Assembly: GCA_023819035.1 (NCBI GenBank) | Contig: JAMWCL010000002.1 | Coordinates: 1 to 57,336, forward strand | Direction: 5' to 3' | DNA length: 57,336 bases | Origin: Candidatus Omnitrophota bacterium | GTDB taxonomy: Bacteria; Omnitrophota; Gorgyraeia; Gygaellales; Profunditerraquicolaceae | Position numbers and translations under genes: made by a program | Notes under the pieces: model-generated | Seen by the model: only the letters and a program-made list of their open reading frames with translations | Database searches by the model: none | Told to the model about the DNA's origin: nothing | Shown: one piece after another, positions 6,001 to 50,495 of the stretch | Layout of the letters: every line of letters starts with the position of its first letter | Numbering within the stretch: position 1 is the stretch's first letter

Positions 6001-9000
6001 CTATATCTTATACCAAGGTCAGCCTGCAGATAATATCCCTGCCTCTTTAGGAGGCGGAGAGGGGCTTGCCTGGGAGATTCCTAATGAGGTTTCTTCTCAG
6101 GTAAGGATAAAGATAATTGGAGATAATGATGTAACAATAGTAGATACCTCCGATACTAATTTTAAGATTGTTGGTCAAATAAACTTTAGTCCAGCGGTCC
6201 CTGCTCCGGGTGATGAGGTTTGGTATGTGGGCACAAATAAGACAGTAGGTTTTACAAAATTAGGCCAGATTCCTACCCTAAAATTACAATATTGTACCAA
6301 TGATATCTGCACAGGTGAGGGTGATTGGACAACTATTCCGGGAGCAGAAAATATTACCGAACTCAGTCATCAATTTGTTATCCCTGATGCTCTCGGTCAG
6401 GGGGTAAGGATACGCGCAGCAAGTGCGGATCCTAATCGTCCGGCTATTCCCGCGGTCTCCGGGTCGATAGAGATTGCGGATATTATCACGATTATCTCGC
6501 CCAGCGGTGATGAACGCTGGCCAGTAGGCACCACCCAGGCGATTGAATGGAAGACCAATGGAAGCTTAGCCAATGTGAAGATTGAGTATTCTTTAGATGG
6601 GACTACACAGCCCATCGAATGGGTAAGCCCACCGATTACTAACTCTACCCCTTCTAATTCGCAAGGCCAAATCATTACCTTTAACTGGCCTATCTCTGCA
6701 GGTGCTACTACTACCAGTAAAGCAGTAATTAGAATTAGTGATGCTAATCCCAATACTGGAACCCAATCAGCAATCTCTAATCTCTTTAGAATTGTAGGAA
6801 GTTTTATCTTTACCTCACCCACCTCCAGTTCAGTATGGCCGGTGACCCAGGGTTATATCAATAATCCACCCCAGACGATCTCCTGGACAACCAACGGCGT
6901 TATTCCTTTGGTGAATTTATGGTATTATTCTACTTCTGGACCTCAACCGGGAACATTTGTAAAGATTAATGATCAACCTATAAATGTGCAGGGAACAAGT
7001 GGAAGTTATCTCTGGAATGTTCCTGATGCTATTTCTAATGCGGTAAGACTGCGCATTGAAGATGCCACCGATCCTTATATTGATGAGGAACATCCTGGAA
7101 CCTCCCAAGTTTCCTCCACATTTACTATCTGTGGAGCATTACAGTTAATCTCGCCATTGGCAGGAACGGTACTTAAGGTTGCTCCTTCTCCTTTAACCCC
7201 GAATACTATATCTTGGAATTATAATGGTAGTTTAGGAAATCTAAATATCTTTTATTCCTTAGATGGTTGTAATGGTCCCTGGAGTCAGATTAATGCTTCA
7301 CCGGTTCCTTCAGTAGACCGTTCTTATTATTGGCAGACACCAGAAAATATTATGACCCCCAATGCCTGTATCAAGGTAGAAAATACAGAGAGTGGTTCAC
7401 TTTATGTAAAAAGTGATTCGGGAGGTGGCTTTAACATTGTGGCACGCATTGAGATAGATGAGCCTGACGCGGGAGATACTATCTTAGCGGGAGAGGATTA
7501 TGAGATTAGATGGAATAAGTGGGGAAGCGGTTGCCAATATGTAAAGATAGAGCTTTCTACCGACGGAATAAATTATGATAAAATAATTACGGAAAGCACA
7601 GGTGCAGATGTAGGTGCGTTTCTTTGGCTTAAGGATGCCCTGGTAAATGCCTCAGATAATATTACCAAGACCGCGCGCATCCGTATCTCTGATACAAATG
7701 CCGAGCTTCCCTCAAGTGCGGAATCGGGTCTATTTACCATCCAGGCACAATTTAGCTTTAATCCGATAGTTTTACCTTTAGAGGTAGGTAGCCAATATGA
7801 TATCGTCTGGACAAAGAAGGGAAATATCCCTTATGTGCTTTTACAGTACTCTACGGATAATTTTGAGGATGATAAGCGCAATGCGGTCACTAATATTAAT
7901 GGGGATACAACTACCTTAGTTCCTAATGTAGGTGGGCAGAATGATCCACCTTCTCGTGCAAGATATACCTGGACGGTTCCTGATATAATCGATCCTATGG
8001 ATATTAAAGGAATCCATCTCATTGGTGCAGACCAGGTAAAACTGCGTGTCTCCGATCCTAACAATTCCAATGCAGTAGCGGTTTCTAATGAATTTAAGAT
8101 CATTCCTAAGTTTAAGGTTACCTCTCCTGATGGAAATGCTGATCCTAATCTTACTGAGAGATTAAAGGTCGGTCTTCCTTATGAGATCACCTGGACATGT
8201 AGTTCAGACCAAACCAATGTTCCTTATGTAAGGATCCTTTATTCTACCACCGGAGGTCCTCCTTATGATAAGTTAATTACCTCTTCTACTGCAAACGACG
8301 GTTCCTATGCCTGGATTACTGCTAATGGCGGTGTGCCTAATGATATCTCAACCCAGGTCAGGATTCGTATTGAGGATGCTACGGACAGGGCTTATACCGC
8401 CTATGATGAATCCGATAATAACTTTAAGATTATTTCTAACTTTACCTTAAATACACCCAATGGCAATGCGGTCTATGAGGTGGGAAGACCTTGGACTATC
8501 TCTTGGTCGAATAAAGGCACAGTCAATAATGTGGAATTATCCTATTCTATTAACGGAGAAGATTTTAGTGATCCTATAATTATTGCCTCCTCCGTAGCTA
8601 ATAATCCCGATCCCATAAATGGCGGAGGAAGTTATGAGACAGTGGTGCCTAATGGAATAAGTTATAATGTGCGTGTACGGGTACGCAGTCTTACTGACGA
8701 TGGTTATGATATCTCGGATAATAATTTTAGAATCCGCGGTAGGATTGAGGATGTGGTAGTAAATAACAACCAGCCGGTTCCCATCCATCAGGATGTTCCG
8801 ATTACCTGGACTACTTATGGAACCGTTCCTTATGTAGATATTCTTTATGATCTTTATGATGGCAAGGGTTGTGATGGGACTGAAGGAACACAGGATGATT
8901 ACTGGAATCCTGGTCCGGATAAGGTTTGCGGAACCTCAGATGATTATCTAAATGTGATTGCCCTTAATCTACCCAATTGTATACCTCAGGCACCTGCCTT

Positions 9001-12000
9001 AAGCTGTAATGGGTCAGCTACCTGGACCTATGTTCCTGATGAACCCACTCCTTTGGGAAGAATTAAGATTTCTGATTCGCGTACCAATCCTGATAATACT
9101 GATGTAAAAGGGATCTCCCCAAGATTTAATATCATCGGTAATTTCACCATAATTTCACCCAATGGTAACGAAGATTTAAGGGTAGGAACCCAACATAATA
9201 TTACCTGGAGATGGGGTGGAACGATCCCTCAGGTAAGACTATTCTATACTAAAAACCCATCCCCTAATCCAGAAGATGTTCCGGAAAATGATTGGATTGA
9301 GATTGATCCTGAGGTAATTAAAGATTATAGCAATGATGGAAAGGGTGATGGTAGCGGTGACGCAGAACGTAGTTATCTTTGGACCGTACCCGATGATATT
9401 GCCCCTAAGGTAAGGATTAAGATTCAGGATTATAACGATCCGACAGTAAGGGATTACTCTGATAACTTCTTTAAGATTAGAGGTGCATTTACCTTAATTT
9501 CACCTAATGGCCATCCTGAGATTAACTTAGCGGAACGTTGGGTAACCAATGAGAAACACAATATTAGCTGGATAACCTACGGAACCATTCCTTATGTAAG
9601 ATTACAATACTCCAATGATGACTTTATCTCGGATATCCATGAGATAATTCCTGAGCCACCTTATACGGTGGCTAACTGTTTACCGCAAGCACCGGAATTG
9701 ACCTGCACTGGCTCTTATCAATGGACTATCCCCAACGCGGTTTTAAAGGATGATAAAGGTATGTATCTTAATTATAATGCAGTAAAGGTCCGCATTATTG
9801 ATCCTAATGACCCGCCTACCCAGGATGATCCAGGGGTAGCGGATGTCTCAGATAACAATTTTAAGATCGACCATTATAAGATTACCTGGAAGCTCTATGA
9901 TTTAACTACTGGTGAACCATTGACTAATTTATCTTATACTGAAAAGATTACCGGTACAGACATTGTGAATCGTACAGGTGGAGGTCTTACTACCCCGGTG
10001 ATCTTACCCACTACCTATGGAACCTGGACGACTACCTGGATTGCTTCCGGCTATGGTGAAAAGGGTCAGAACTTTGTTGCGGATAGTGACCAGAGCTTTA
10101 CCTTATTCCTGGAGACTACAGTAATTCATATCTGGCGGGCATATTCCGAATTTGCCTATCAACCTCCTGAGACTGAACCACCTACCCCGGATATCTTAAA
10201 TATAAGCTCCTGGTTAGAAAGGGATGGCGCGGTAGTCTCCGGTGCCGTAGTTCCCGATGTTTATCTCTACGATGGGTTAAGCTTAATAAAGAGATTAACC
10301 GCGATAAAGAACGAAGATGACCCTCAGCCCGGTAAGATTACCATCTATTACTGCCAGGATATTCCTTTAGGCGCAGTAGAGATCTGGGTCGGTCAAAGAG
10401 AAGACGGTACTGAGCGCACTGTTCAGGATATTGTTAATGAGGTAGCTCCTTGGATAGTGTCTCAGGAGACAATAAATGAGAGCGCCTTTACTGGATTCTT
10501 TAAACAGACCTGGACAGACACACCTCTAGAATCAGGAAAGGTCTATAATACCATTACTGATATAATGAATAAGAGTGGCGCTCATTTTAGAACCCCAGGT
10601 TCCTTTGAGATAACCGCTGCCAAGAGCCTACAAGAGATGCAGGCAACCGTAAACTCTGTGCTTAATAAACCGATTAGCGAGGTAAGCCAAGAGCTACAAG
10701 AGGCATTAAATACCCAGACCCAGCTAATTAATCAGATGATGACGGAGCAGACCAACATCATTACCCAGAAGACTAATGAAATGCAGGAGACGATAAATAC
10801 AACCATGGAAAGGTTTGAGAATACTACGCGGGAATCCTTGGATCTGTTAGCCTCAGGTGCAAAACAGGCAGTAGAAGCAGGTCAGACCTTGGAATACACC
10901 GCGTTAAAATATTCCTGGAAAGCAACCGTCTCACCCGATCCTGCCTTAGTCAACGATATGATTACCTTACAATGCCAAGGTCAACCCGGAAAGACACCCT
11001 TCTTAACTATTTATAGCTGGGATAACAAATATATTGTGCGCGATGTTCCTTTGAAGGAATCTAGCACCCCTGGTCTTTATATTTATGAGTTTAAAGCAGA
11101 CTCGCGTTTTACCCCTGGTAAAGCCTATACCTACACTATTATTGAGTATGATACCGATGGTTTTGTTACTGGTTCAGGTATGGTAGAAAGTATGTCGATT
11201 ACCACGGTAGCCGGTCTTGCTTCAGCTGCTCCTGAGGCGGAACGCGCAGCTAAAAATGCCTTAGAGGCAATTAAAGCGGTGGAGGCGGTCCTGGCTTCTG
11301 CAGATACAGCAAATGTGGCGTTAACCTTAAGAAATCTTAAAGATTCTATTGAGGCTTTACCAGCAGTTCTTATGCGCGAAGGTCCCACTGCCCGGATTGT
11401 TGAGGCGGTTAATAATATCAGTGAAAGACTAAATGTGATCTTAGGAGAAGAGGGTCTTGATTTAAGTACATTGTTAGAAGAGGCATTAAGCGAATCACCT
11501 ACCCTTAAAGAGATCCGCAAGAAGACCGACACCATAAGTATGATTATTGATTTACTTTTACAGATTGTAGAAGGGAAATTAGGTGGTTTAGATACTCCGG
11601 TGGTTTCTACCTCCCTTATTGCTGGCAGTGTAAGGTTTCGCATTGTGGCGGTTAACCCCTCTACCATTAAAACACATAAGGTTCAGATAAAGAATTATTT
11701 ACCTTTAGAGGTAAAGCCCAAGGATATTTTAGATTTAGGAGGTTTAGAATTAGAATACGATTCCGCAAAAGGAATATATTACTTATATAAACCTGATTTA
11801 GAATTAGCACCTAAAGAGGTGCGTATCTTTGAGGTAGAGGTGGAGGATATCTGGACGATCCCTGAATCTAAGATTAATGAATTAAAGAAGCATACCACGG
11901 ATATCCTTAAGCTTCTGGAGAAAACCAATTATTTTGCGGAAGCAAAGGCTGTCTCCGACAGTATCTATCGCAGTTTAGATGAGATTATAAAATCTCAGAA

Positions 12001-12328
12001 CGATGACTCGGTTAGTCGTGAGCAACATATCGGTATTTATCGTCAGAATATAGAGGTGGTTAAACAGATTGAAGAGGATATAGCCAAATTAGAAAAGATG
12101 CTTAAGCCTCCTTCAGGGGTTGCTACACCTGAGGTTTTAGAAAAGGCAAAATTAAAGATAAATCTTCCCTCAAAGACGACTACCTGGTTAATAATTATAG
12201 CGATCATTATCTTTTTAGGATTGTTAGCGGGGGTATTCTTCTTCATCTGGCAGGCACAGGTGCGTTCAAGTCAAGAGGTTATCAAACAAGCTAAGGAGTC
12301 ATCTTTTCCCGAAAAAGAAAATAAATAG
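2..12328 (+). CDS. Giant cell-surface repeat protein, 5'-truncated by the window edge (>4,100 aa visible). It has tandem ~100-aa Ig-like beta-sandwich modules, a non-repeat C-terminal region with coiled coil, and a single C-terminal TM anchor.
   Basis: Frame 2 has no stop from nt 2 to the TAG at 12326-12328. The track's TTG start at 59 lies inside a module (YAWNIPVNFQNISETCVIRL...FKIRT). Modules share the pattern W..G....I.W...G....V.I.Y...Y.W.(V/I)P......(R/K)I(R/K)(I/V)...F.I. The only hydrophobic helix is WLIIIAIIIFLGLLAGVFFFIW at ~12184-12249. Confidence 0.85.
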   Translation, partial: YAWNIPVNFQNISETCVIRLRSGSVGGEGTELTAYSPQFKIRTKLLQVTSPSSGEVWYVGDTTKKIRWEAESGKKNDGSWPKVKIEYNVNDGAFKQLIPGQDVIVDCVNGLNEYIWTAGVADEKSDKIKIRISFVDYSDISITSDYFTIYPVINILSPNADSTIKVGSSNNPVSFTYTGSKITLVNVRYDTNNGLGADGQPATGDEFAGVIQDNLAVSGGSAEVMWNSIPDAIYPTAQIKVKVYDTQNPSIQAESQAFRIVGNLVLTAPSGQSTSWTAGSTQNISWNFGGTMRVNVFYNLNSGIGNWTPIAPLSYKDVSGVSGSATLAWDLPLIATNKARIKLEAEGDPGVYSISQEDFKIGAKFEVLNPEDGVALYVGDNYEITWNTFGISGVNYVAIEYTNNDSTGQTWNSITTSAPNSGSWSWIVPGSLADLSNDCRIRIYQYDPANEIDNTVNLGSGLAFRIKPKLIFINPSPPLSWSIGEQHPIKFKKRGAIQKVDLYYSYDGNPLNFTYKINSTPIDISGLADDTEYTYDWTIAEDTPLTPGYTGKIKVKVNEPATQTSVEAVQSNTIEVKGLLTLNTPSAEGISMVYTGPNYMITWTPVGQIQDVKLYYSTNGGYQGGGSYPESNFITQVASSLGQYSWPVPDKIGDNLRIKVCDANNCEAVYDESDYPFTIKGKLTLDVPDTQGIIWEVNTTQQIKWTPTGTWSSVEIHYDTDGDFSDGQNTFPFKSTGALTPNDGIEDWIVPDKISSNVKIRIRDPDHPDVQAISSYPFSIVGKINSVTSPSSGEVWYVGDTTKKIRWEAESGKKNDGSWPKVKIEYNVNDGAFKQLIPGQDVIVDCVNGLNEYIWTAGVADEKSDKIKIRISFVDYSDISITSDYFTIYPVINILSPNADSTIKVGSSNNPVSFTYTGSKITLVNVRYDTNNGLGADGQPATGDEFAGVIQDNLAVSGGSAEVMWNSIPDAIYPTAQIKVKVYDTQNPSIQAESQAFRIVGNLVLTAPSGQSTSWTAGSTQNISWNFGGTMRVNVFYNLNSGIGNWTPIAPLSYKDVSGVSGSATLAWDLPLIATNKARIKLEAEGDPGVYSISQEDFKIGAKFEVLNPEDGVALYVGDNYEITWNTFGISGVNYVAIEYTNNDSTGQTWNSITTSAPNSGSWSWIVPGSLADLSNDCRIRIYQYDPANEIDNTVNLGSGLAFRIKPKLIFINPSPPLSWSIGEQHPIKFKKRGAIQKVDLYYSYDGNPLNFTYKINSTPIDISGLADDTEYTYDWTIAEDTPLTPGYTGKIKVKVNEPATQTSVEAVQSNTIEVKGLLTLNTPSAEGISMVYTGPNYMITWTPVGQIQDVKLYYSTNGGYQGGGSYPESNFITQVASSLGQYSWPVPDKIGDNLRIKVCDANNCEAVYDESDYPFTIKGKLTLDVPDTQGIIWEVNTTQQIKWTPTGTWSSVEIHYDTDGDFSDGQNTFPFKSTGALTPNDGIEDWIVPDKISSNVKIRIRDPDHPDVQAISSYPFSIVGKINSVTSPSSGEVWYVGDENKEIRWDATGTVTHVDIAYKTSLGGAYNTIVAGDPGHSAGANSYSWPVVGDIKSETVYIRVCPAGTEERCAESAEFKIRPKITVTINDADGRLPVGSYIDTPLIKWTCSSQSQTPSVNVLYDLYNGNGPDGLPNTNDEYQGVIANLVPVGAGSTGIPWYNDGQGVPDEMTSQPTLKIKVVDSSSPSVFGLSNVPLKIVGDLTLLKPTTGGAENGEYLKVGQDFLIQWAKKGTALTQVTLWYSDDGGQDGFVHPILPLGTEYIPAGSTGGQYTWVNIPNTTSNNVIVRISDYNDPETKAFSPAIHIQSILDIRTPDGGETWAAGDDREIIWTVSGKTRYVKLQYAINGGGANDTWYDIAEHDNQNTWTAPPDPPAEFSYLWMNIPEQAVSNNVKIRVIDKADEENWNESASVFRIRPSVTVISPNGNEEWLVGSTQYIKWSLKGTVNVVDVLYSVDGGNYNYILYQGQPADNIPASLGGGEGLAWEIPNEVSSQVRIKIIGDNDVTIVDTSDTNFKIVGQINFSPAVPAPGDEVWYVGTNKTVGFTKLGQIPTLKLQYCTNDICTGEGDWTTIPGAENITELSHQFVIPDALGQGVRIRAASADPNRPAIPAVSGSIEIADIITIISPSGDERWPVGTTQAIEWKTNGSLANVKIEYSLDGTTQPIEWVSPPITNSTPSNSQGQIITFNWPISAGATTTSKAVIRISDANPNTGTQSAISNLFRIVGSFIFTSPTSSSVWPVTQGYINNPPQTISWTTNGVIPLVNLWYYSTSGPQPGTFVKINDQPINVQGTSGSYLWNVPDAISNAVRLRIEDATDPYIDEEHPGTSQVSSTFTICGALQLISPLAGTVLKVAPSPLTPNTISWNYNGSLGNLNIFYSLDGCNGPWSQINASPVPSVDRSYYWQTPENIMTPNACIKVENTESGSLYVKSDSGGGFNIVARIEIDEPDAGDTILAGEDYEIRWNKWGSGCQYVKIELSTDGINYDKIITESTGADVGAFLWLKDALVNASDNITKTARIRISDTNAELPSSAESGLFTIQAQFSFNPIVLPLEVGSQYDIVWTKKGNIPYVLLQYSTDNFEDDKRNAVTNINGDTTTLVPNVGGQNDPPSRARYTWTVPDIIDPMDIKGIHLIGADQVKLRVSDPNNSNAVAVSNEFKIIPKFKVTSPDGNADPNLTERLKVGLPYEITWTCSSDQTNVPYVRILYSTTGGPPYDKLITSSTANDGSYAWITANGGVPNDISTQVRIRIEDATDRAYTAYDESDNNFKIISNFTLNTPNGNAVYEVGRPWTISWSNKGTVNNVELSYSINGEDFSDPIIIASSVANNPDPINGGGSYETVVPNGISYNVRVRVRSLTDDGYDISDNNFRIRGRIEDVVVNNNQPVPIHQDVPITWTTYGTVPYVDILYDLYDGKGCDGTEGTQDDYWNPGPDKVCGTSDDYLNVIALNLPNCIPQAPALSCNGSATWTYVPDEPTPLGRIKISDSRTNPDNTDVKGISPRFNIIGNFTIISPNGNEDLRVGTQHNITWRWGGTIPQVRLFYTKNPSPNPEDVPENDWIEIDPEVIKDYSNDGKGDGSGDAERSYLWTVPDDIAPKVRIKIQDYNDPTVRDYSDNFFKIRGAFTLISPNGHPEINLAERWVTNEKHNISWITYGTIPYVRLQYSNDDFISDIHEIIPEPPYTVANCLPQAPELTCTGSYQWTIPNAVLKDDKGMYLNYNAVKVRIIDPNDPPTQDDPGVADVSDNNFKIDHYKITWKLYDLTTGEPLTNLSYTEKITGTDIVNRTGGGLTTPVILPTTYGTWTTTWIASGYGEKGQNFVADSDQSFTLFLETTVIHIWRAYSEFAYQPPETEPPTPDILNISSWLERDGAVVSGAVVPDVYLYDGLSLIKRLTAIKNEDDPQPGKITIYYCQDIPLGAVEIWVGQREDGTERTVQDIVNEVAPWIVSQETINESAFTGFFKQTWTDTPLESGKVYNTITDIMNKSGAHFRTPGSFEITAAKSLQEMQATVNSVLNKPISEVSQELQEALNTQTQLINQMMTEQTNIITQKTNEMQETINTTMERFENTTRESLDLLASGAKQAVEAGQTLEYTALKYSWKATVSPDPALVNDMITLQCQGQPGKTPFLTIYSWDNKYIVRDVPLKESSTPGLYIYEFKADSRFTPGKAYTYTIIEYDTDGFVTGSGMVESMSITTVAGLASAAPEAERAAKNALEAIKAVEAVLASADTANVALTLRNLKDSIEALPAVLMREGPTARIVEAVNNISERLNVILGEEGLDLSTLLEEALSESPTLKEIRKKTDTISMIIDLLLQIVEGKLGGLDTPVVSTSLIAGSVRFRIVAVNPSTIKTHKVQIKNYLPLEVKPKDILDLGGLELEYDSAKGIYYLYKPDLELAPKEVRIFEVEVEDIWTIPESKINELKKHTTDILKLLEKTNYFAEAKAVSDSIYRSLDEIIKSQNDDSVSREQHIGIYRQNIEVVKQIEEDIAKLEKMLKPPSGVATPEVLEKAKLKINLPSKTTTWLIIIAIIIFLGLLAGVFFFIWQAQVRSSQEVIKQAKESSFPEKENK
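143..2359 (+). repeat. Copy 1 of a 2,217-bp in-frame tandem duplication inside the giant gene (739 aa, seven Ig-like modules)
   Basis: Identical to 2360-4576 at every DNA stretch I compared, and across the whole 739-aa translation. The antisense shadow ORFs 1922-2104 and 4139-4321 are identical and offset by exactly 2,217 nt. Confidence 0.95.
2360..4576 (+). repeat. Copy 2 of the 2,217-bp tandem duplication. Identity continues 42 nt further (4577-4618 = 2360-2401 = 143-184) into the next, diverged module.
   Basis: Same as copy 1. The first mismatches are at 142 vs 2359 (left edge) and 2402 vs 4619 (right edge). Confidence 0.95.
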
Positions 12329-12353
12329 ATGCCTTTAAGTTAACTTTTTAAAA

Positions 12354-12390
12354 GGCAACCTCTTGTATAAAAAGGGGTTGTCTTTTTTAT
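12354..12390 (+). terminator. Rho-independent terminator downstream of the giant gene
   Basis: GGCAACCTCT (12354-12363) pairs with AGGGGTTGTC (12373-12382). That is a 10-bp stem with two G-U pairs and a 9-nt loop, followed by TTTTTTAT. Confidence 0.6.
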
Positions 12391-12419
12391 TTAGCATTTT
12401 TTAAAAATAGTGATATAAT
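12391..12419 (+). promoter_or_regulatory. Sigma70-like promoter for the ATPase operon
   Basis: TTAGCA (12391-12396), 17-nt spacer, TATAAT (12414-12419) preceded by TG at 12411-12412 (extended -10). The ATG at 12433 is only 13 nt after the -10 and no SD is visible. Confidence 0.5.
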
Positions 12420-12432
12420 ATATAAAAACAAA

Positions 12433-12666
12433 ATGTTAGATGTAATTGTGGTCAGTGTCCAAAAGAGTATCTTTTCTGGTAAAGCAAAGAGTATAATCTT
12501 TCCAGGGGAAAAGGGGGTATTTGAGATCCTTCCCTTCCACAAGCCCATCTTAAGTAGATTAATCCGGGGAAATCTGGTTATCGACGGAAAAACCTTTTCT
12601 ATCCGAAGAGGAATTGTGGGGTTTAATTATAATAAGGCTTATATAGTTATAGAAGAAGATGGATAG
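12433..12666 (+). CDS. atpC: F-type ATPase epsilon subunit, beta-sandwich domain only (77 aa; the C-terminal helical hairpin is absent)
   Basis: The sequence VSVQKSIFSGKAKSIIFPGEKGVFEILPFHKPILSRLIRGNLVI matches the epsilon N-terminal consensus (lpg.eGe.giLp.H.P.l..L..G). The stop overlaps the next ATG (ATGGATAG). Confidence 0.75.
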   Translation: MLDVIVVSVQKSIFSGKAKSIIFPGEKGVFEILPFHKPILSRLIRGNLVIDGKTFSIRRGIVGFNYNKAYIVIEEDG

Positions 12667-12871
12667 AAATTTAGCATTACTTTTAATTTTTTCTGCTTGT
12701 ATCTTTGGGCCGTGTTGGGTCTTTGCAGTGTGCGCCAAGGCAAGTATTAATGCCTTAGGAAGAAATCCTTCCGCTGCTCCGCGCATATTTACTGCCATGA
12801 TTATTGCCTTGGTCTTCGCCCAGGCAGCAGCGATAATTGCCATGTTAGTTGTATTTCAACTGTTTAGTTAG
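12659..12871 (+). CDS. atpE: F-type ATPase c-subunit-like hairpin protein (70 aa) lacking the ion-binding carboxylate
   Basis: Two hydrophobic helices are joined by the loop GRNPSAAP (canonical ARQPE). Helix 2, TAMIIALVFAQAAAIIAMLVVF, aligns to TTMFIGVALVEALPIIGVV of a canonical c subunit with Q in place of E. It lies between epsilon and b. Confidence 0.7.
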   Translation: MDRNLALLLIFSACIFGPCWVFAVCAKASINALGRNPSAAPRIFTAMIIALVFAQAAAIIAMLVVFQLFS

Positions 12872-12880: not shown

Positions 12881-13606
12881 ATGCTTATTGTTTCGTTAGT
12901 GGTAATTCAGGTAATTATCTTTGTAGTTTTATTTTTGTTTTTGCGTAGTAGTTTTAATAAAAATGTAATTAGTGCTACCACCCATCTTGAGCAGTTGTCA
13001 CAGGAATATACCAAGAAACAAGAACAGATAAAAAATCTATATGAGGAAGCCAAACGTCAAACTCAGGAGATTATTGAAAGTTCACGCAAGGATGCCGAAA
13101 AGCAAAGAGAGCAGATCCTGAAGGATGCACAATTAGAAAAAGAAAGGATCTTAAATACCGCCCATCAGCAGGCCAATGAGATTGTAGAGCAGGCAGACAA
13201 AGCAAGAAAGACTTTACTTTCGGAGATAGAAAAGAAGATAGAAGAGAGGGCAATCCAGCGCGCAGGAGATTTATTAAATGAGATTCTTCCTTTGGATCTC
13301 CGTCAGCAGATTCATCAGCACTGGATAGAAGATTTACTTTCGGCAGGGTTTCAGCAATTAGAGCGCCTGCATATACCCGAGGGGATCACCGAGGCAGAGC
13401 TTATCACTGCCTTTGCTTTGGAGCCGATAAAGAAAGAGGTTTTAATAAAAAAGATCCAAGAAAGACTGAATCGTCAGCTTAATTTTAAAGAGAAGGTCGA
13501 CGAAGATATAATTGCAGGTTTAATTGTAAATATTGGAAATCTTGTTTTTGATGGAAGTCTTAGATTAAAGCTCCAGGAGTTAATTAATGCTAAACAGTCA
13601 ACTTAA
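12881..13606 (+). CDS. atpF: F-type ATPase b subunit fused to the C-terminal domain of delta (OSCP)
   Basis: There is an N-terminal TM (LIVSLVVIQVIIFVVLFLFL) and a long charged helix. The C terminus, AELITAFALEPIKKEVLIKKIQERLNRQLNFKEKVDEDIIAGLIVNIGNLVFDGSLRLKLQEL, aligns with the delta C-terminal consensus (...vd.sliGG..i..gd.viDgSv...L..L). Confidence 0.75.
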   Translation: MLIVSLVVIQVIIFVVLFLFLRSSFNKNVISATTHLEQLSQEYTKKQEQIKNLYEEAKRQTQEIIESSRKDAEKQREQILKDAQLEKERILNTAHQQANEIVEQADKARKTLLSEIEKKIEERAIQRAGDLLNEILPLDLRQQIHQHWIEDLLSAGFQQLERLHIPEGITEAELITAFALEPIKKEVLIKKIQERLNRQLNFKEKVDEDIIAGLIVNIGNLVFDGSLRLKLQELINAKQST

Positions 13607-15065
13607 CCAAAAGAGTCAGCCAAGCTTTGAGGTAAAAGAAAAAGGAATCATTACCACTGTCCGCGAATGTATTATAAAGGTTAAAGGGCTTCCCTCCTGT
13701 ATTAACGGTCAGTTGATTGAGTTTAAAGGCGGTGGTCAGGGGATGGTCTTGGGGTTTACCGAGGAGGAGGTTCAGGTTTTAGTTTTGAATTCCAAGGTTA
13801 GTCTCTCTACAGGAGATGAGGTTTACAGTAAAGCAGAGTTCCTTCATCTTCCTGTGGGTGAAGGATTCATCGGCCGTATTGTCAATGCCTTATGCGAACC
13901 CTTAGATGATTTAGGTCCTATCCAGCCCCAAGCTTTTTATCCGGTCTTTGCGGAGGTTCCCGGGGTGATGGATCGTATACCGGTAAAAGAAACCCTGGAG
14001 ACAGGAACCTTGGTTATCGATGCGGTTATACCCATCGCTAAAGGTCAAAGACAACTCCTTATTGGTGACCGCTTAACCGGAAAGACAACAGTAGCGATAG
14101 ATACGATATTAAATCAGAAAGGTAAAGAGGTAATCTGTATTTATTGTTGTATTGGTAAACCCCAGAGTAGCTTAGCAAAGGTCTTGGATCTTCTTAAAGA
14201 AAAGGAGGCGATGTCTTATACAATTGTGGTAAATGGTGTTGCCTCCTGCTCGATGGGAGAACAGTACCTTGCCCCTTATACCGCTGCCATGTTAGGTGAA
14301 TATTTTATGCATCAAGGAAAGGATGTCTTTGTGGTTTTTGATGACTTAACTAAGCATGCCTGGGTTTATCGGCAGATCTCGCTTTTATTGGAGCGCGTTC
14401 CGGGGAGAGAGGCTTATCCTGGAGATATATTTTATATTCACTCCCAGCTTATGGAACGTGCAGGTTACTTAAAACCGGAATTGGGTGGTGGCTCAATGAC
14501 CTTCTTTCCGATTGTGGAGATTTTACAGGGAGATGTTACAGGTTATATCTCAAGTAATCTTATCTCTATGACCGATGGGCAGATCTATTTTAATACCGCT
14601 TTATTTAATAAAGGAATTAGGCCGGCGATCGATTTCGGGCTTTCGGTCTCCCGTATCGGAAACAAGGCCCAATGGCCAGCGATGAAGGCTTTAAGCGGTA
14701 AGTTGCGCTTAGAGTATCTCCAATATCAGGAGCTTCTCCAGATGACCCAGTTGCGTACTACTGGTCTTTCTAAAGAAGCAGAGCAACAGATGAAACGCGG
14801 TCAAGCAATTACCCAGATATTTATCCAGGATAAGAACAGGCCCTTATCCATGGAAGAAGAGATAATTATTCTTTTTGCCTTAAGTATCGGGGTATTAGAT
14901 AATCTTTCAAGTTCTGCGATTAAGGAATTTAAGGAAAAGATTATTGAAATTATTAAAAAGGATTATTCAGATTTACTAGTAGAATTAAGAAGTACTCAGG
15001 TTCTAAGTGATGCCAATATAGAAAGGTTATACGAGGCATTGGATAAATATTTTCAGAATATCTAA
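13587..15065 (+). CDS. atpA: F-type ATPase alpha subunit
   Basis: Walker A GDRLTGKTT, then VFDDLTKHA, REAYPGDIFYIHSQLMERA and ISMTDGQIYF; 492 aa. Confidence 0.92.
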   Translation: MLNSQLNQKSQPSFEVKEKGIITTVRECIIKVKGLPSCINGQLIEFKGGGQGMVLGFTEEEVQVLVLNSKVSLSTGDEVYSKAEFLHLPVGEGFIGRIVNALCEPLDDLGPIQPQAFYPVFAEVPGVMDRIPVKETLETGTLVIDAVIPIAKGQRQLLIGDRLTGKTTVAIDTILNQKGKEVICIYCCIGKPQSSLAKVLDLLKEKEAMSYTIVVNGVASCSMGEQYLAPYTAAMLGEYFMHQGKDVFVVFDDLTKHAWVYRQISLLLERVPGREAYPGDIFYIHSQLMERAGYLKPELGGGSMTFFPIVEILQGDVTGYISSNLISMTDGQIYFNTALFNKGIRPAIDFGLSVSRIGNKAQWPAMKALSGKLRLEYLQYQELLQMTQLRTTGLSKEAEQQMKRGQAITQIFIQDKNRPLSMEEEIIILFALSIGVLDNLSSSAIKEFKEKIIEIIKKDYSDLLVELRSTQVLSDANIERLYEALDKYFQNI

Positions 15066-15068: not shown

Positions 15069-15911
15069 ATGAAGTTACTTTCTCAGATTAAAAAGGATTT
15101 AGAATTTAATCAAGCACTTTTTAATTTGATTGAGGTAATAAAGGAGATCTCCCTTTCTCAATATCATGTGTTAGAAAAACAGAAAAGAGAATTTGGAGAT
15201 CTTTTTGATTGTCTTAAGAATATATTTACGATGATTAGTCTAAGTGAGATTAAGCATCCCTTGCTTGATATACAAGGTCAGCAAGCAGGGGTAATTGCGG
15301 TAACTACCGACACCGGTTTAGTAGGTGGGCTTAATCTTTCGGTAATAAATCTGGCTTTAAAGGAGGTAGAAGAGAATAAAGCTAAATTAATTATTATTGG
15401 AGAAAAAGGTAAGTTTTATGCCCAAGATGCGCAAGTTTCCTTTGTCGCATTTGCTGGGATAAAAGACGATGAATGCCTTAAGCAAGCCCTGGAATTAAGG
15501 GATTACATTATAAAGGAGGAGTTAGAATTAAGGTTAGGTCAATTAAAGATTATCTATCCTTATCCTATCTCAATTGTGGCTCAGCGGGTAGAGACATTAC
15601 AGCTTTTGCCCTTTGTTCTAACTGAGTTTAAGACAAAAGAGGCGTTTTCTTATAAGGAATTAATCCTTGAATCCTCTTTAGAAGATGTCTTAGAATATCT
15701 AATCTATCTTTTGTTAGGCAATAAACTTTATGAGATATTTACCTTAAGCCGCTTAGCAGAATTATCCGCGCGTTTTATGCATTTAGAGGAAAGTAAAACC
15801 AAGATTGAACAGCTTAATCGGCAACTAAGATTACAATACCATCGCCAGCGCCACGAGCTTATTGACCGCACGATGCGCGAACTCTTTGGAGCGCGTCTGG
15901 TCTTCGGTTAA
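15069..15911 (+). CDS. atpG: F-type ATPase gamma subunit
   Basis: 280 aa between alpha and beta. TDTGLVGGLN matches the gamma motif (sd+GLcG..N), and the C-terminal helix is QYHRQRHELIDRTMRELFGA. Confidence 0.85.
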   Translation: MKLLSQIKKDLEFNQALFNLIEVIKEISLSQYHVLEKQKREFGDLFDCLKNIFTMISLSEIKHPLLDIQGQQAGVIAVTTDTGLVGGLNLSVINLALKEVEENKAKLIIIGEKGKFYAQDAQVSFVAFAGIKDDECLKQALELRDYIIKEELELRLGQLKIIYPYPISIVAQRVETLQLLPFVLTEFKTKEAFSYKELILESSLEDVLEYLIYLLLGNKLYEIFTLSRLAELSARFMHLEESKTKIEQLNRQLRLQYHRQRHELIDRTMRELFGARLVFG

Positions 15912-15916: not shown

Positions 15917-17317
15917 ATGAATAAAGATATAAAAGCATCTATTGGTTATGTGGTGGCGGTCCAGGGACCGGTAGTGGATGTAAAATTCCCTGATTCCGAG
16001 GATATGCCGGCGATTTTAGAGAATCTTAACACCCAGACTGTCGATAGGAAAAGGGTAGTCTTAGAGGTTGTCGAACATCTGCCCGGCAATATCGTGCGCT
16101 GTATTGCAATTAACTCCACCTTTAATCTTCAGCGCCATGCGGTGGTTACGCGTACCGGTGAACCCATCCAGATTCCTCCCGGAGATGCTCTTTATGGCCG
16201 GATTGTTAATTGTTGGGGAAGTCACATAGACCAAAAAGAAGAGATTGTCGCTACCGAGAAGATCCCCATTCGCAAGCCTAAGACCTCAAGTCGACTGATT
16301 TACACCCAGCAACGCGCAGGGGATAAATTTGAGATCCTTGAGACAGGGATTAAGATTATTGACCTGCTCTTTCCTTTAGTTAAAGGAAGCAAGAATGGTA
16401 TCTTAGGTGGTGCTGCCTTAGGAAAGAGTATCTTGACCTTAGAAATAATCCATAATATTGTAAGAAAACATCAGGGTGCCTGTGTCTTTACCGGAGCAGG
16501 AGAGCGTATTCGCGAAGGAAATGAGCTTTACTTTGAGCTTTCCCGTCGGGATATTTTATCCAAGACGGTTTTGATCTTCGGTCAGATGAATGAGCCACCC
16601 GGTGCACGTTTTGAGGTAGCAATGAGTGGGGTTACCTTAGCGGAGTCACTTCAGCAAAAAAATCAAGATGTGCTTTTGTTTGTGGATAATATCTTTCGTT
16701 TCTTACAGGCAGGGGCAGAGATTTCCAGTCTCTTAGGAAGGCTTCCTTCGGAAACCGGTTATCAACCCACCTTAATCTCGGAGGCAAGTGAGTTTCATGA
16801 GAGGATACGCTCCTCTAAAGAGACGGGTGGTTCGATTACCTCGATTGAGGCGGTTTATATCCCTGCGGATGACCTTACTGATCCAGCGGTAGTAACTATA
16901 TTTAGTTTTTTGGATTCCATTATGGTGCTTTCTCGACAGAGGGTGCAATTAGGGCTTTATCCGGCAATCGACCCTTTGCTCTCTTCAAGTGCTAATCTTG
17001 ACCCGGATATCGTAGGGGGGCGCCATTTTGAAGTAGCCCAGGAGGTTTTACATACCCTTCAGCGCTATGAAGAATTAAGAAGGATTGTTATGGTAATTGG
17101 TATCGATGAGCTTTCTGCGGGAGACCGTATCCTTTATGAACGTGCACGGAAATTACAGAATTTTTTAACCCAGCCCTTCTTTGTGGCAGAGGCATATACG
17201 GGTAAGATGGGTGAGTATGTAACCTTAGAACAGACCCTTTTGGGATGCGAAAAGATTATGGCAGGCCATCTGGATCGTCGACCCGAGGGCGAACTCTATA
17301 TGATTGGAGCAATATAA
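15917..17317 (+). CDS. atpD: F-type ATPase beta subunit (catalytic motifs intact)
   Basis: P-loop GGAALGKS, catalytic GAGERIREGNELY, GQMNEPPGAR, Walker B LLFVDNIFRFLQAG, YIPADDLTDPA. The DELSEED region is changed to DELSAGD. Confidence 0.92.
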   Translation: MNKDIKASIGYVVAVQGPVVDVKFPDSEDMPAILENLNTQTVDRKRVVLEVVEHLPGNIVRCIAINSTFNLQRHAVVTRTGEPIQIPPGDALYGRIVNCWGSHIDQKEEIVATEKIPIRKPKTSSRLIYTQQRAGDKFEILETGIKIIDLLFPLVKGSKNGILGGAALGKSILTLEIIHNIVRKHQGACVFTGAGERIREGNELYFELSRRDILSKTVLIFGQMNEPPGARFEVAMSGVTLAESLQQKNQDVLLFVDNIFRFLQAGAEISSLLGRLPSETGYQPTLISEASEFHERIRSSKETGGSITSIEAVYIPADDLTDPAVVTIFSFLDSIMVLSRQRVQLGLYPAIDPLLSSSANLDPDIVGGRHFEVAQEVLHTLQRYEELRRIVMVIGIDELSAGDRILYERARKLQNFLTQPFFVAEAYTGKMGEYVTLEQTLLGCEKIMAGHLDRRPEGELYMIGAI

Positions 17318-17328: not shown

Positions 17329-17808
17329 ATGAAAGAAATGCCTAAACGTTTAGGTGAGATATTGCTGGAAAAAGGGCTGATTACCGAGGCACAGCTTTAC
17401 GATGCGTTAGCAGAGCAGAGTCTAAGTAATAAATTCTTAGGAACAATCTTAGTTACCAAAGGCTGGATTACCGAGCATCAACTTATGGAGGCACTTGCTG
17501 AACAGTTCAATATGCCTCTTGTAGAATTAAAGAAAGACCAGGTGAACATGGAGTTGTCTAATTTACTTTCCTCATCCCTGATCTTAGACCATAAGTGTTT
17601 CCCTATAGAGCAAACCCCGGATACCTTAACCGTGGCCATCGTTAATCCCCTGGATGCAGTAGCAATTAGTAAAATCGAACAAGAGGCAAAACCGCGCAAG
17701 ATAAAGCTGGTCTTGGTTACTGAGGAGAACCTAAAAGAGATCCTCTTAGATTATCGTCGGTATATCAGTCAGAGTATCCAACGGCTCTTAAGAAGAGATA
17801 AGAAATAA
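17329..17808 (+). CDS. Stand-alone MshEN (c-di-GMP-binding) + T2SSE_N domain protein
   Basis: ATG at 17329 lies 6 nt after AGGAG (17318-17322); the longer ORF from 17245 overlaps atpD. There are two tandem 24-aa MshEN motifs, RLGEILLEKGLITEAQLYDALAEQ and FLGTILVTKGWITEHQLMEALAEQ, followed by a GspE-N1-like domain (TLTVAIVNPLD). Confidence 0.8.
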   Translation: MKEMPKRLGEILLEKGLITEAQLYDALAEQSLSNKFLGTILVTKGWITEHQLMEALAEQFNMPLVELKKDQVNMELSNLLSSSLILDHKCFPIEQTPDTLTVAIVNPLDAVAISKIEQEAKPRKIKLVLVTEENLKEILLDYRRYISQSIQRLLRRDKK

Positions 17809-19925
17809 TGACTAAGTTCGATACCCTTCTTTATGAAACCCTAATTAATCAAGAAAGATTTAAAAAGGATACCTTACAGCCCTATCTTAAAGAAGCAGAA
17901 CAGATGAATCAACCCTTAGCGAGTGTGCTTATCAGACATAATCTTCTTCCTGAGGTAGAGATTCTGCATATTTTTAGTGAACAGCTTAAGATACCCTTTA
18001 TTGATCTTAAGAATATCTCTATAGAGAAATCAGTCATAGATAAGGTTCCGGTTAAGGTTGCTTTTTATTATAAATTTATTCCTTTACAGATTAAAGAACG
18101 CACCTTGATCATTGCTGTTTCTTTACCCTTAGATATTAAGGTTCAGGATGAGATTCGCACTCAATTAGGTTATGATATTGAGCTTGTGCTTGCTTCTTCC
18201 GCAGATATCCGCGATAGTTTAACTAAATACTATGGTCTTGCTCAGGAGACATTGGAAAAGATTATTGAACGGATCCCTTTTGCCGAAACAAGCAACCTCT
18301 CCTTAGAGAAGATTGAAGACATCGAAAGGTTGGCTGAGGATGCCTCGGTAATAAAATTAGTAAATCAAATAATCCTTGAAGCCTACAGAAAACGTGCTAC
18401 CGATATACACATCGAGCCCTATCGCCAAGGGGTGGTCATTCGTTATCGGATAGATGGGGTTCTTTATGATACTAATGTCCCTACAGAAATTAAAAATCTT
18501 CTTGGGGCGATTATCTCGCGCATAAAGATTATGTCTAATCTCAATATTGTAGAGCGCAGGCTCCCCCAAGATGGTCGGGCAGTGGTAAAGGTTCAGGAGC
18601 AGATTCTTGATTTAAGGATCTCAACCTTACCTACCCCTTTTGGAGAAAGTGTAGTAATTAGAATCCTTCCTACTCAGATGCTCTTTAGTTTGGAGAGGTT
18701 AGGTTTATCCAAGCAGGACTTACAGATATTGGAGAATCTGATTAAAAAACCTCATGGGATTATCTTTGTTACCGGGCCTACGGGAAGCGGAAAGACCACT
18801 ACCTTATATGCCTGTTTAGCCAAGATCAATACCAAGGAAAGAAAGATTATTACCATTGAAGACCCTATTGAATATGAGATGCCGGGGATTACCCAGATCC
18901 AGGTTAATCCCGAGATCGGCTTGGATTTTGCGCGTGGCCTGCGCAGTGCCCTACGACATGATCCTGATGTGATGATGGTCGGTGAGGCGCGGGATTTAGA
19001 GACTGCAGAGACCGCCATCCGCGTTGCCTTAACCGGGCATCTTGTATTTTCTACCCTGCATACCAATGATGCTAGCTCCGGGATTACGCGTTTATTAGAT
19101 ATTGGGATTGAACCATATTTGGTGGCTTCCAGTGTAGAGGCGTTTATTGCTCAGCGTTTGATCCGTTTGATTTGCCCAGAATGTAAATATGAAGACAAGG
19201 CAGCACCTCAAGAATTAAAGATAATGATTGCTAAGGACTTAGGGATTAAATCACTGGAAGAGGTAAGGATCTATCGGGGAAGGGGATGTCCAAATTGTAA
19301 CTTTACAGGATTCTTTGGTCGAACCGGGATATATGAGATACTTTTAGTGGATGAGACTATCAAGGATTCAATCTTAAAAAAGACCCCTTCCAACCAAATC
19401 AAAAAGAGCGCTATCTCCGAAGGGATGCATACCTTAAGACAGGATGGTTGGCAGAAGGTGATTGCGGGAATTACCCCTCCTGAAGAGGTAATGAAGGTTA
19501 CCCCCCAGGAGGAAGAGGTAGAAAAAGCCACCTCTGTCTATTATCCTGGAGTTTCTTCTGCAGGAAGGGAATTAGAGAAAAGGATTTATAAACGTCTGGA
19601 TAGCCGTATCCTTATAAGTTACCGTATCTTTAAGGCTCAAGAAGAATTAATTAAGCGGGGGGTCTCGTCTGAGCAGATCAGTATTACCAAGAATATCTCA
19701 GCAGGGGGATTGCTTTTTATCTCTCCCGAGGCATTACCTGTAGGGGAGGTGCTTGAGCTTAAGATAGAGCTTCCTGATGGAGAAAGCCCGGTCGATTGCT
19801 TAGCCAGGGTGGTAAGAACAGAGATGACCAGGGATGACAAATATGAGATCGGGGTCTGTTTCTTAGATATCACGGGCGCACAAAGGTCTAGGTTAGATAG
19901 ATATGTAGAGGCGGAGGTAAGATAA
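17808..19925 (+). CDS. gspE: GspE/PilB-family secretion ATPase with a C-terminal PilZ domain
   Basis: Walker A GPTGSGKTTT, DPDVMMVGEARD, His box TGHLVFSTLHTND, zinc motif CPECK...CPNC. The C-terminal ~116 aa carry PilZ motifs RIYKR (RxxxR) and NISAGG ((D/N)xSxxG). The start overlaps the previous stop by 1 nt. Confidence 0.9.
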   Translation: MTKFDTLLYETLINQERFKKDTLQPYLKEAEQMNQPLASVLIRHNLLPEVEILHIFSEQLKIPFIDLKNISIEKSVIDKVPVKVAFYYKFIPLQIKERTLIIAVSLPLDIKVQDEIRTQLGYDIELVLASSADIRDSLTKYYGLAQETLEKIIERIPFAETSNLSLEKIEDIERLAEDASVIKLVNQIILEAYRKRATDIHIEPYRQGVVIRYRIDGVLYDTNVPTEIKNLLGAIISRIKIMSNLNIVERRLPQDGRAVVKVQEQILDLRISTLPTPFGESVVIRILPTQMLFSLERLGLSKQDLQILENLIKKPHGIIFVTGPTGSGKTTTLYACLAKINTKERKIITIEDPIEYEMPGITQIQVNPEIGLDFARGLRSALRHDPDVMMVGEARDLETAETAIRVALTGHLVFSTLHTNDASSGITRLLDIGIEPYLVASSVEAFIAQRLIRLICPECKYEDKAAPQELKIMIAKDLGIKSLEEVRIYRGRGCPNCNFTGFFGRTGIYEILLVDETIKDSILKKTPSNQIKKSAISEGMHTLRQDGWQKVIAGITPPEEVMKVTPQEEEVEKATSVYYPGVSSAGRELEKRIYKRLDSRILISYRIFKAQEELIKRGVSSEQISITKNISAGGLLFISPEALPVGEVLELKIELPDGESPVDCLARVVRTEMTRDDKYEIGVCFLDITGAQRSRLDRYVEAEVR

Positions 19926-19928
19926 TTT

Positions 19929-21192: not shown

Positions 21193-21582
21193 ATGTCCGA
21201 AAAAAAGAAAATCTTTATTGCTGATGATGATGAAACAGTCTTAACCAGTTTGAAAAGATTATTGGTTCTTGCTGGTTTTGAGGTGGAGACCGCGCAAAGA
21301 GCCAAGGAGGTAACCTCAAGAATTAAGGGCTTTAAACCCGACTTGATCATTCTGGATCTGTTGATGCCGAATTTAGGTGGACTGGAGATATGCGAGATGT
21401 TAAACCAGGATAAAGAGACTCAAAATATCCCGATTATTGTGGTCTCTGGATTAGCGGGTATCGAGGATATAAAAAAAGCTTATAGATTAGGTGTAATTAA
21501 TTACTTTACAAAACCTTACGATTTTGATAAGCTATTAAAAGAGATTAACAAAGCCATTATCTATAAAGAAAAAAAGATATAA
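21193..21582 (+). CDS. Single-domain response regulator (REC only)
   Basis: IFIADDDE, LIILDLLMPNLGG, VVSG, TKPYD. Confidence 0.88.
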   Translation: MSEKKKIFIADDDETVLTSLKRLLVLAGFEVETAQRAKEVTSRIKGFKPDLIILDLLMPNLGGLEICEMLNQDKETQNIPIIVVSGLAGIEDIKKAYRLGVINYFTKPYDFDKLLKEINKAIIYKEKKI

Positions 21583-21607
21583 CCTTAAACTAATATAAAT
21601 TAAATTT

Positions 21608-24261: not shown

Positions 24262-24329
24262 TAGAATTGGTCACCGAATAACTACCTATAGATTTTTAAT
24301 CCACAAGAAGACGAAGCAGATCATAAATA

Positions 24330-26246: not shown

Positions 26247-26255
26247 GAGTCGCTT

Positions 26256-28152: not shown

Positions 28153-28166
28153 GAAGTAAGGCAAAA

Positions 28167-28910: not shown

Positions 28911-28931
28911 AGATGAAAAAAGGAGAAGGGA

Positions 28932-29351: not shown

Positions 29352-29383
29352 CCAATTTGATAGCTGTATAAAGGAGGGAACTA

Positions 29384-49243: not shown

Positions 49244-49254
49244 TCTAAAAGAAT

Positions 49255-50493: not shown

Positions 50494-50495
50494 TT

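Follow-up and report, generated by a model that had tools for sequence, protein, structure and literature searches.

A probably ion-blind c-subunit in an F-type ATPase operon of Omnitrophota that lacks subunit a

The c-ring's carboxylate and the a subunit are the two features that are most constant in the membrane motors of rotary ATPases, and ion translocation needs the c carboxylate as well as the arginine and the half-channels of subunit a. What purpose does a c-subunit serve in an operon where neither is found? This question is raised by an F-type ATPase operon on contig JAMWCL010000002.1 from a Candidatus Omnitrophota bacterium, of which positions 1 to 57,336 were analyzed (hereafter the window). 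The genes of the operon are arranged in the order epsilon, c, b-delta fusion, alpha, gamma and beta, followed by genes for an MshEN-domain protein, PilB-PilZ and PilC. The second gene codes for a protein of 70 amino acids, MDRNLALLLIFSACIFGPCWVFAVCAKASINALGRNPSAAPRIFTAMIIALVFAQAAAIIAMLVVFQLFS, which an initial annotation described as a c-subunit homolog with Gln in place of the essential ion-binding Glu or Asp. Our results suggest that this protein is probably a true c-subunit without an ion-carrier role, in a specialized, a-less F-type ATPase of the Omnitrophota.

The open reading frame (ORF) encodes a genuine homolog of the F-type c-subunits. It matched the ATP-synt_C profile (PF00137) with a score of 33.2 bits (gathering cut-off 24, E-value 6.4e-8), with residues 9-66 aligned to positions 5-58 of the 60 profile positions. 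A phmmer search against all PDB chains retrieved almost exclusively F- and V-type c-subunits in ungapped alignments, among them the c-subunit of Chloroflexus aurantiacus (9itj_H, E-value 1.3e-5, query residues 11-67 on chain residues 13-69). In this alignment, the GRNP loop of 9itj_H coincided with G-R35-N36-P37, and the Glu in its FTEALAI segment coincided with Gln55, as did the Glu in the LSEATGL segment of the yeast and Yarrowia c-subunits. The loop register that had been read from the sequence was thus recovered on the GRNP or SRNP of solved c-subunits, and both the profile and the reference alignments placed Gln55 at the ion-binding position. A misaligned register was rejected, as the ungapped alignments to several PDB c-subunits agreed with the Pfam and family hidden Markov model (HMM) alignments. 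The R-N/Q-P polar loop is the site of contact with gamma and epsilon in F-ATPases. A monomer model predicted by AlphaFold2 from an alignment of 36 sequences is a helical hairpin (residues 3-35 and 37-69) with a predicted local distance difference test (pLDDT) score of 92, and its top Foldseek matches were the F-type c-subunits of Chloroflexus, Bacillus pseudofirmus and Bacillus PS3 (TM-scores 0.7-0.8).

Asp2, located ahead of helix 1, is the sole acidic residue of the protein, and neither of the two helices contains Asp or Glu, as had been noted from the start. The absence of a glycine zipper was also borne out. The G-P-G-V-G-I-G segment in helix 1 of 9itj aligned with G17-P-C19-W-V21-F-A23, and neither the GxGxGxG nor the AxAxAxA packing motif of ion-translocating c-rings was identified. 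Three Cys residues are present, at positions 14, 19 and 25.

To what extent is the Gln at position 55 a property of the family? When 5.8 billion proteins were searched, 217 homologs of 66-80 amino acids were obtained. Scanning GTDB with a single genome for each species gave 304 matching stretches, nearly all of which were labeled Omnitrophota, as were the organism-named entries among the best 120 c homologs. A set of 80 loci with 10-kb flanks was drawn from the 304 matching species genomes. Among the best 120 of the 217 homologs, position 55 is occupied by Glu in 77, Gln in 41 and Met in 2 sequences. The survey for the Glu-to-Gln substitution that the initial annotation had called for was extended to 188 distinct orthologs from the protein matches and the genome loci, in which Gln was found in 80, but Glu was retained in 102, and Met (2), Val (2), Gly (1) and Leu (1) accounted for the remainder. 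Non-carboxylate alleles thus represent 46% of the distinct sequences. Close representatives of 50%-identity clusters (E-value below 1e-7) additionally showed Ser, Ala and Phe at this position, and Asn was seen in one truncated match among the representatives. The codons used at position 55 in the family are CAG (32), GAA (20), GAG (18), CAA (10) and GGG, GTG, GTA and CTG (one each), which are mostly separated by single-step changes.

The state of position 55 has changed repeatedly. On a neighbor-joining distance tree of concatenated alpha and beta sequences from 64 loci, parsimony required a minimum of 10 changes between residues with and without a carboxylate. Two tandem c genes in one locus (L070, 988-1498) both have Gln where the carboxylate would be, although they are unequal in divergence, with far more in the second one (LTVVQIIAMA). 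All single-hairpin c-subunits with a GxGxG motif in helix 1 among 60 matches inspected had Glu. Relocation of the carboxylate to another position in the helices, as in the A24D/D61G variant of E. coli, was rejected, since 85 of the 86 non-carboxylate c sequences were without any other Asp or Glu in the helices and the lone exception was an ORF truncated at its end.

The remainder of the protein is strongly conserved. Each of the three loop residues Arg, Asn and Pro is invariant (120/120), and the full set of invariant residues comprises M1, N4, F11, P18, F22, L33, R35, N36 and P37, with Q67 nearly so. Helix 1 has a conserved family motif of its own, G-P-C-[W/A]-V-F-A, with G17 in 95, P18 in 120, C19 in 105, V21 in 118, F22 in 120 and A23 in 102 of the 120 homologs. 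The mean pairwise pN of the c gene was 0.21 versus a saturated pS of 0.82 (3486 pairs). The start codon of the c gene overlaps the stop codon of the epsilon gene (ATGGATAG), so that the two genes may be translationally coupled. Because of this overlap, the 217 homologs and the low pN relative to pS, the ORF is taken to be a real, translated gene rather than a chance ORF, and the alternatives of a chance ORF or a pseudogene were rejected on homolog conservation and on a pN far below pS. The conservation of Cys14 (113/120) and Cys19 (105/120), which with Cys25 lie in helix 1 (12701-12733 in the window), is unusually high for a c-subunit.

Since position 55 varies while the rest of the c-subunit and the catalytic residues of F1 (see below) stay conserved, the carboxylate is evolutionarily dispensable rather than absent, and the substitution of Glu by Gln is not a family-wide trait. 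As judged from these comparisons, the ATPase is functional and under selection, and it is indifferent to the residue that ion-coupled c-rings need. A ring for which the carboxylate is dispensable would not be an ion turbine, and the proposal that such a ring could not carry protons or sodium ions gained support from the at least 10 switches and the conservation of the rest of the protein.

Is subunit a also missing? No match to the subunit a profile (PF00119) was found among the approximately 50 genes in the 57-kb window, and no ORF resembling E. coli AtpB was identified in the related loci retrieved with flanks, which cover the cluster and its neighborhood rather than whole genomes. Likewise, none of 84 loci had, in or beside the cluster, an unassigned ORF for which at least four transmembrane (TM) helices were predicted. 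The gaps between the six ATPase genes in the window are -8, 9, -20, 3 and 5 nucleotides, and there is no room for subunit a in the operon because these genes abut or overlap; a hidden subunit a within the cluster was rejected on the same grounds. The only large gap inside the operon is a 1.7-kb insertion between c and b-delta in one locus (L007, 1355-3030), which contains two ORFs for soluble proteins of 149 and 281 amino acids and no TM-rich stretch. By eye, these two ORFs have the look of a nucleotidyltransferase or HEPN-type toxin-antitoxin pair. The cluster thus appears to provide neither half-channels nor a stator arginine, in line with the fit between the altered c-subunit and a missing subunit a that had been suggested.

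The F1 head is predicted from its motifs to be catalytically intact. Alpha and beta are close to the canonical bacterial F1 subunits (450-490 bits against PDB chains). The Arg-finger motif GLSVSRIG in alpha and the Walker A GK, the GER.RE motif and the Walker B Asp in beta were each present in 64 of 64 loci, so that by its residues, together with a gamma subunit that matches its profile, the alpha3beta3-gamma assembly has the features expected for catalysis. No frameshifts were identified in the six ATPase genes of the window. The order of the nine genes from epsilon to PilC, with MshEN in the seventh place, is invariant in the 80 loci as far as the length of the contigs permits.

The stalk subunits have been modified. 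Epsilon is short, with a median length of 77 amino acids in 64 loci, and neither a full-length epsilon with the C-terminal helices nor a full-length delta is encoded in the operon. The C-terminal domain of epsilon inhibits hydrolysis in canonical F1. In the b-delta fusion protein, residues 24-127 matched subunit b chains in PDB, residues 158-239 matched residues 95-176 of E. coli delta, and residues 164-234 corresponded to positions 97-168 of the PF00213 profile, whereas the N-terminal, alpha-binding domain of delta is missing. The stalk is predicted to be anchored in the membrane by its own TM helix. Alpha begins approximately 10-17 residues short of the PDB alphas, in the segment that normally binds the N-terminal domain of delta. 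Since this domain is lost and the start of alpha is shortened, the stator may join F1 differently than in canonical enzymes. The coordinates of the genes and sites are listed in Table 1.

Table 1. Genes and sequence elements of the ATPase operon and its surroundings in the window.
Feature	Position	Strand	Basis
ORF of a giant surface protein (at least 4108 aa) that is already open at the contig start and ends in the module	2..12328	+	ORF listing
Conserved C-terminal module of the giant ORF	11531..12328	+	146 homologs; AlphaFold2; recurrence upstream of epsilon
Terminator-like hairpin	12350-12386	+	Consensus match only
Promoter-like site ahead of epsilon, TTAGCA-17-TATAAT with TG	12391-12419	+	Consensus match only
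Epsilon, 77 aa, N-terminal beta-sandwich only	12433..12666	+	PF02823 at 40.8 bits, without C-terminal domain
c-subunit homolog	12659..12871	+	PF00137; ungapped PDB alignments; AlphaFold2 hairpin; c-subunits as top Foldseek matches
Helix-1 segment G17-P-C-W-V-F-A23 in place of GxGxGxG	12707..12727	+	9itj alignment; family signature
R35-N36-P37 polar loop codons	12761..12769	+	Alignment to GRNP/SRNP of solved c-subunits; invariance in homologs
Codon 55, CAG (Gln), at the essential ion-binding Glu/Asp position	12821..12823	+	Register of PDB and family HMM alignments
b-delta fusion: N-terminal TM helix, b-like helix, C-terminal domain of delta only	12881..13606	+	Pfam and PDB matches
Alpha subunit	13587..15065	+	PF00006 and PF00306; best PDB matches canonical bacterial F1 alpha, up to 490 bits
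Gamma subunit	15069..15911	+	PF00231 at 119 bits
Beta subunit (catalytic)	15917..17317	+	PF00006
MshEN-domain protein, PilB-type ATPase (MshEN and PilZ domains), PilC platform protein	17332..21143	+	Pfam; directly 3' of beta

Upstream of the operon, a second conserved element was identified. Since the window is the entire contig of 57,336 bp and the giant ORF located here is already open at its first bases, the encoded protein must exceed 4108 amino acids. The giant ORF that precedes epsilon has only weak, Ig-like Pfam matches (Kre9_KNH, Psg1), and its last approximately 240 residues constitute a module that is encoded upstream of epsilon in 71 of the 72 loci with enough flank. In 49 loci, the module is the C-terminus of ORFs of more than 600 amino acids, mostly more than 3000, and in 22 loci it is a shorter, free-standing ORF. 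An ORF of 7609 amino acids is found in the same arrangement on a contig of 1.62 Mb (L001). The AlphaFold2 model of the module (pLDDT 85) consists of a beta-sandwich, a three-helix segment, a linker, one long TM helix and a short cytoplasmic tail. Invariant elements are NPS, LPxE, DxW, IxxYR and a TW...FF signature in the TM helix, and there is no arginine in the membrane segment. No Pfam match above threshold was obtained for the module or any of its 146 homologs, and a Foldseek search of PDB gave no convincing match (best E-value 0.03, TM-score about 0.2).

The giant ORF in the window contains a perfect tandem duplication (143-4618), in which 143-2401 is 100% identical to 2360-4618 (offset 2217 nucleotides, 2259 identical bases, about 739 amino acids repeated exactly); this is either a very recent event or an assembly artifact. 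A more distant module paralog of 228 amino acids precedes another a-less cluster (L084, JAQURC010000001.1), which has a more divergent c-subunit with Glu and in which genes for Peptidase_MA_2 and REC-GGDEF proteins are inserted before epsilon. This cluster comes from the same metagenome-assembled genome (MAG) as two other a-less clusters (L039, L041), so several cluster copies per genome are possible. One homolog of the module (P0143) is labeled Candidatus Methanoperedens, which is probably a binning or labeling error.

How might an F-type ATPase work with these parts? In the mechanism that we favor, the complex would be an ATP hydrolase only, and the c-ring would be the membrane-embedded base of the gamma-epsilon rotor, moving neither protons nor sodium ions. 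Position 55 would prefer a neutral, polar side chain of the size of Glu, with a role in structure rather than in transport, and Glu and Gln would be interchangeable there because a lipid-exposed Glu would be protonated and as such equivalent to Gln. Since the full rotor and a separate, membrane-anchored stator are retained, torque would still be made between two membrane elements, and this torque, or a conformational cycle, might be handed over to a partner in the membrane. The best candidate for such a partner, although this is speculative, is the single-pass upstream module, often the anchor of a giant adhesin, which could act jointly with the type IV pilus machinery encoded next to it, in analogy to the F1-like motors known from Mycoplasma. 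ATP is probably burned for mechanical work rather than made, given a c-subunit that appears to be ion-blind, the missing subunit a and the pilus and adhesin genes in the neighborhood. Taken one step further, the system could represent a third type of output from a rotary ATPase, in which an ion-blind c-ring turns against the b-delta stator and its motion is passed to a module that has taken the place of subunit a, actuating surface proteins or pili in the attachment to prey, as an intermediate between F1Fo and the X0 and G1 motors of the Mycoplasma F1-like type. We regard this extension as a tentative and rather doubtful one.

Several observations weigh against an ion-blind rotor. Glu is kept at position 55 in approximately 54% of the orthologs (102/188), and the near-exclusive alternation of Glu and Gln, with no Lys or Asp and few hydrophobic residues, indicates that some constraint is left at this position. 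The bulky V21 and F22 have replaced the glycine zipper, and the c-ring and its stoichiometry are only presumed. A stalk with a TM helix of its own seems to imply torque between two membrane parts, for which the upstream module is a candidate partner. The search for subunit a in the source genome spans only 57 kb, so the gene could be located in trans. Finally, because terminator-like and promoter-like sites lie between the giant ORF and epsilon, co-transcription is not necessary and the linkage of the module to the operon seems to be positional rather than necessarily transcriptional.

The retention of Glu in 102 of the 188 orthologs would also be expected if the enzyme were still chemiosmotic, with the Gln55 of the window as a drifting, non-functional allele and subunit a encoded elsewhere. 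The high similarity of alpha and beta to canonical F1 (450-490 bits) fits such an enzyme, and so does the complete canonical F-type operon that is listed for some Omnitrophota (genome 58) in the supplementary entries consulted from PMC10066038. Yet not a single gene for subunit a was found in any of the 84 clusters, and alleles without a carboxylate make up 46% of the sequences and have arisen at least 10 times, in operons that are under purifying selection and have intact F1 motifs. Moreover, both tandem c genes in L070 have Gln, epsilon is without its regulatory domain, and in the same supplementary entries genome 221 is listed with alpha, beta and V-type subunits but not with a, b or c. We consider ion translocation by this enzyme to be very improbable. 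Even less credible is a decaying ATP synthase operon that has lost atpB and in which c is becoming a pseudogene. The loss of subunit a, of the N-terminal domain of delta and of the C-terminal domain of epsilon, along with the variable carboxylate, could be read as signs of decay, but an intact order of nine genes in 80 loci from 304 matching species genomes, a mean pN of 0.21 far below the pS of 0.82 in 3486 pairs of c genes, catalytic motifs in 64 of 64 loci and six window genes without frameshifts effectively refute this explanation.

The initial annotation had suggested that the ring is either an uncoupled rotor or a structural anchor. The comparative data support this pair of options, and the sequence by itself is compatible with both. 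An oligomer of c that merely tethers F1 to the membrane would leave the work to be done on a cytoplasmic partner, such as the MshEN/PilB pilus ATPase or the export of giant proteins, much like FliH, FliI and FliJ at the type III export gate. The absent subunit a and the dispensable carboxylate are consistent with a static role, as are the tight linkage to MshEN, PilB and PilC in one co-oriented string of genes and the altered attachment of the stator, in which the N-terminal domain of delta is lost and alpha is about 10-17 residues short. A simple anchor would not need some 70 conserved residues under strong purifying selection, however, and gamma, epsilon, the invariant c loop (RNP in 120/120) and the membrane-anchored stalk, all of which are kept, are the apparatus that resists the torque of a rotor. 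A static anchor is therefore unlikely in our view, and a c-ring that rotates without carrying ions is the preferred explanation.

We compared the operon to systems that have been described previously. A non-respiratory or "symbiotic" F-type ATPase beside type 4a pilus clusters has been reported from all classes of Omnitrophota, and was proposed to help the cells attach to their hosts or move on them (Seymour et al., 2023, Nat Microbiol, PMC10066038). That cluster is the same as the one studied here, with F-type alpha and beta genes beside type IV pilus (T4P) genes in genomes that often contain giant ORFs. It was defined in that study by the phylogeny of alpha and beta and by co-location, and the terms c-subunit, c-ring and a-subunit do not occur in the main text (PMC10066038). 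In our literature searches, no previous account was found of an F-type cluster without subunit a in which the c-subunit has no carboxylate. The system is thus known in outline, and what is new here is the apparently ion-blind c-subunit, the consistent lack of subunit a and the module conserved upstream; the invariant gene order and the fusion of b to the C-terminal domain of delta also go beyond the previous description. In Omnitrophota MAGs from Ace Lake, a V-type enzyme has been assigned as the bioenergetic ATP synthase (PMC8542988). In the supplementary entries consulted from PMC10066038, genome 221 is given K02111 and K02112 (alpha and beta) and V-type subunits, while K02108 (a), K02109 (b) and K02110 (c) are absent from its entry; genome 58 has the full canonical F-type operon. 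This genome-level evidence from KEGG Orthology identifiers covers few genomes and is anecdotal, and a bioRxiv paper from 2026 has no listing of atpB.

The closest functional parallels are the type 2 (G1-ATPase, gliding) and type 3 (F1-like X0, MIB-MIP) systems in Mycoplasma, which are likewise a-less, ATP-hydrolyzing F1 derivatives with a non-bioenergetic function at the cell surface (PMC3369863, PMC11864180, PMC12994834). Seven genes make up the F1-like X0 cluster, among which are those for a 12-TM protein, for a small protein of the cytoplasm and for a large protein that has a signal peptide and two TM helices at its C-terminus; homologs to b, delta or c are absent (PMC12994834). The large signal-peptide protein has a counterpart in Omnitrophota, with one C-terminal TM helix, and the M. 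mobile cluster is associated with giant surface proteins, as is the Omnitrophota cluster. In contrast to the Mycoplasma clusters, the Omnitrophota operon keeps c and b-delta and has no 12-TM protein. Alpha from the Omnitrophota ATPase is reported to cluster with the Mycoplasma F1-like subunits (PMC10066038). Beta in the window scored 333 bits against M. mobile G1 beta and 407-468 bits against the canonical F1 betas in PDB. Neither the gene content nor the beta similarity scores support membership in the Mycoplasma type 2 or type 3 families. The Omnitrophota system looks like an intermediate between the Mycoplasma F1-like family and F1Fo.

With canonical F1Fo, the Omnitrophota enzyme shares alpha, beta, gamma, the N-terminal domain of epsilon, c, b and the C-terminal domain of delta, with intact catalytic residues. 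It differs in that subunit a is missing, the c carboxylate is not conserved, the glycine motif in helix 1 has been replaced, epsilon has no C-terminal domain, delta has no N-terminal domain and is fused to b, and the gene order has changed. The operon also differs from the N-ATPases (atpDCQRBEFAG), which have AtpQ, AtpR, subunit a and a c-subunit with a sodium motif, while no extra small membrane genes are present here. Loss of a carboxylate, through a change of Glu to Gln or otherwise, has precedents in c1 of Acetobacterium woodii, which belongs to an F/V-hybrid ring (PDB 4bem), and in multi-hairpin archaeal and V-type proteolipids. The match of 4bem to the c-subunit studied here was weak in both phmmer and Foldseek. 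Such rings retain ion transport, since the carboxylate persists in the remaining hairpins and there is a subunit a or I, unlike the ring considered here, in which every copy would lack the carboxylate and no subunit a is encoded. Neutralization of the carboxylate in E. coli, by cD61N/G or by modification of c with DCCD, abolishes proton translocation. Whereas these are loss-of-function states made in the laboratory, the neutral residue in Omnitrophota is a naturally fixed and recurrent allele.

A system that was matched in 304 species-level genomes and that keeps c and the central and peripheral stalks, yet drops subunit a and lets the Glu drift, provides a natural experiment on the purpose of a c-ring without ion carriage. 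It also points to a path along which F1Fo could have turned, one step at a time, into the F1-like motors of Mycoplasma. The c genes of the family are named "F0F1 ATP synthase subunit C" by annotation pipelines, and chemiosmotic ATP synthesis by an F-type enzyme may be ascribed to Omnitrophota in error when their metabolism is reconstructed. The association with giant adhesins and with type IV pili bears on how ultra-small predatory or parasitic bacteria attach to their hosts.

The neighborhood downstream of beta is rich in pilus and signaling genes. PilB and PilC start 0.5 kb past beta, within the 10-kb criterion applied to F-type ATPase and T4P genes in Omnitrophota (PMC10066038), and farther downstream there are numerous response regulators as well as pseudopilins, PilM/N/O and another PilB/PilC set. 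The region after PilC (21193-29773) encodes seven receiver-domain proteins, of which one also has PilZ and another has a double REC, along with two histidine kinases and a further PilB-type ATPase. The density of signaling genes and the MshEN and PilZ domains on PilB suggest that the pilus system may be controlled by c-di-GMP and a phosphorelay. A second pilus set is located approximately 30 kb downstream, beyond a block of housekeeping genes, with an MshEN protein, two T2SSE ATPases, PilC and two N-methyl pilin-like proteins (48794-53340 and 55103-56273).

A few relatives in the searches were unusual. Six contigs with the cluster (L019, L022, L029, L030, L035, L036) are labeled Planctomycetia/Planctomycetales, Deltaproteobacteria or Margulisiibacteriota, which are probably binning or labeling errors. 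The profile search also retrieved fused c-type proteins with multiple hairpins, P0243 (968 aa), P0252 (447 aa) and P0273 (1139 aa), in which HMMER identified 10 (8 of them recovered on re-alignment), 6 and 15 stretches, respectively, with Glu in all aligned hairpins; these may be rotor rings made from a single polypeptide. Two-hairpin versions of about 140 amino acids (P0245 and P0249) were found near the family of the c ORF.

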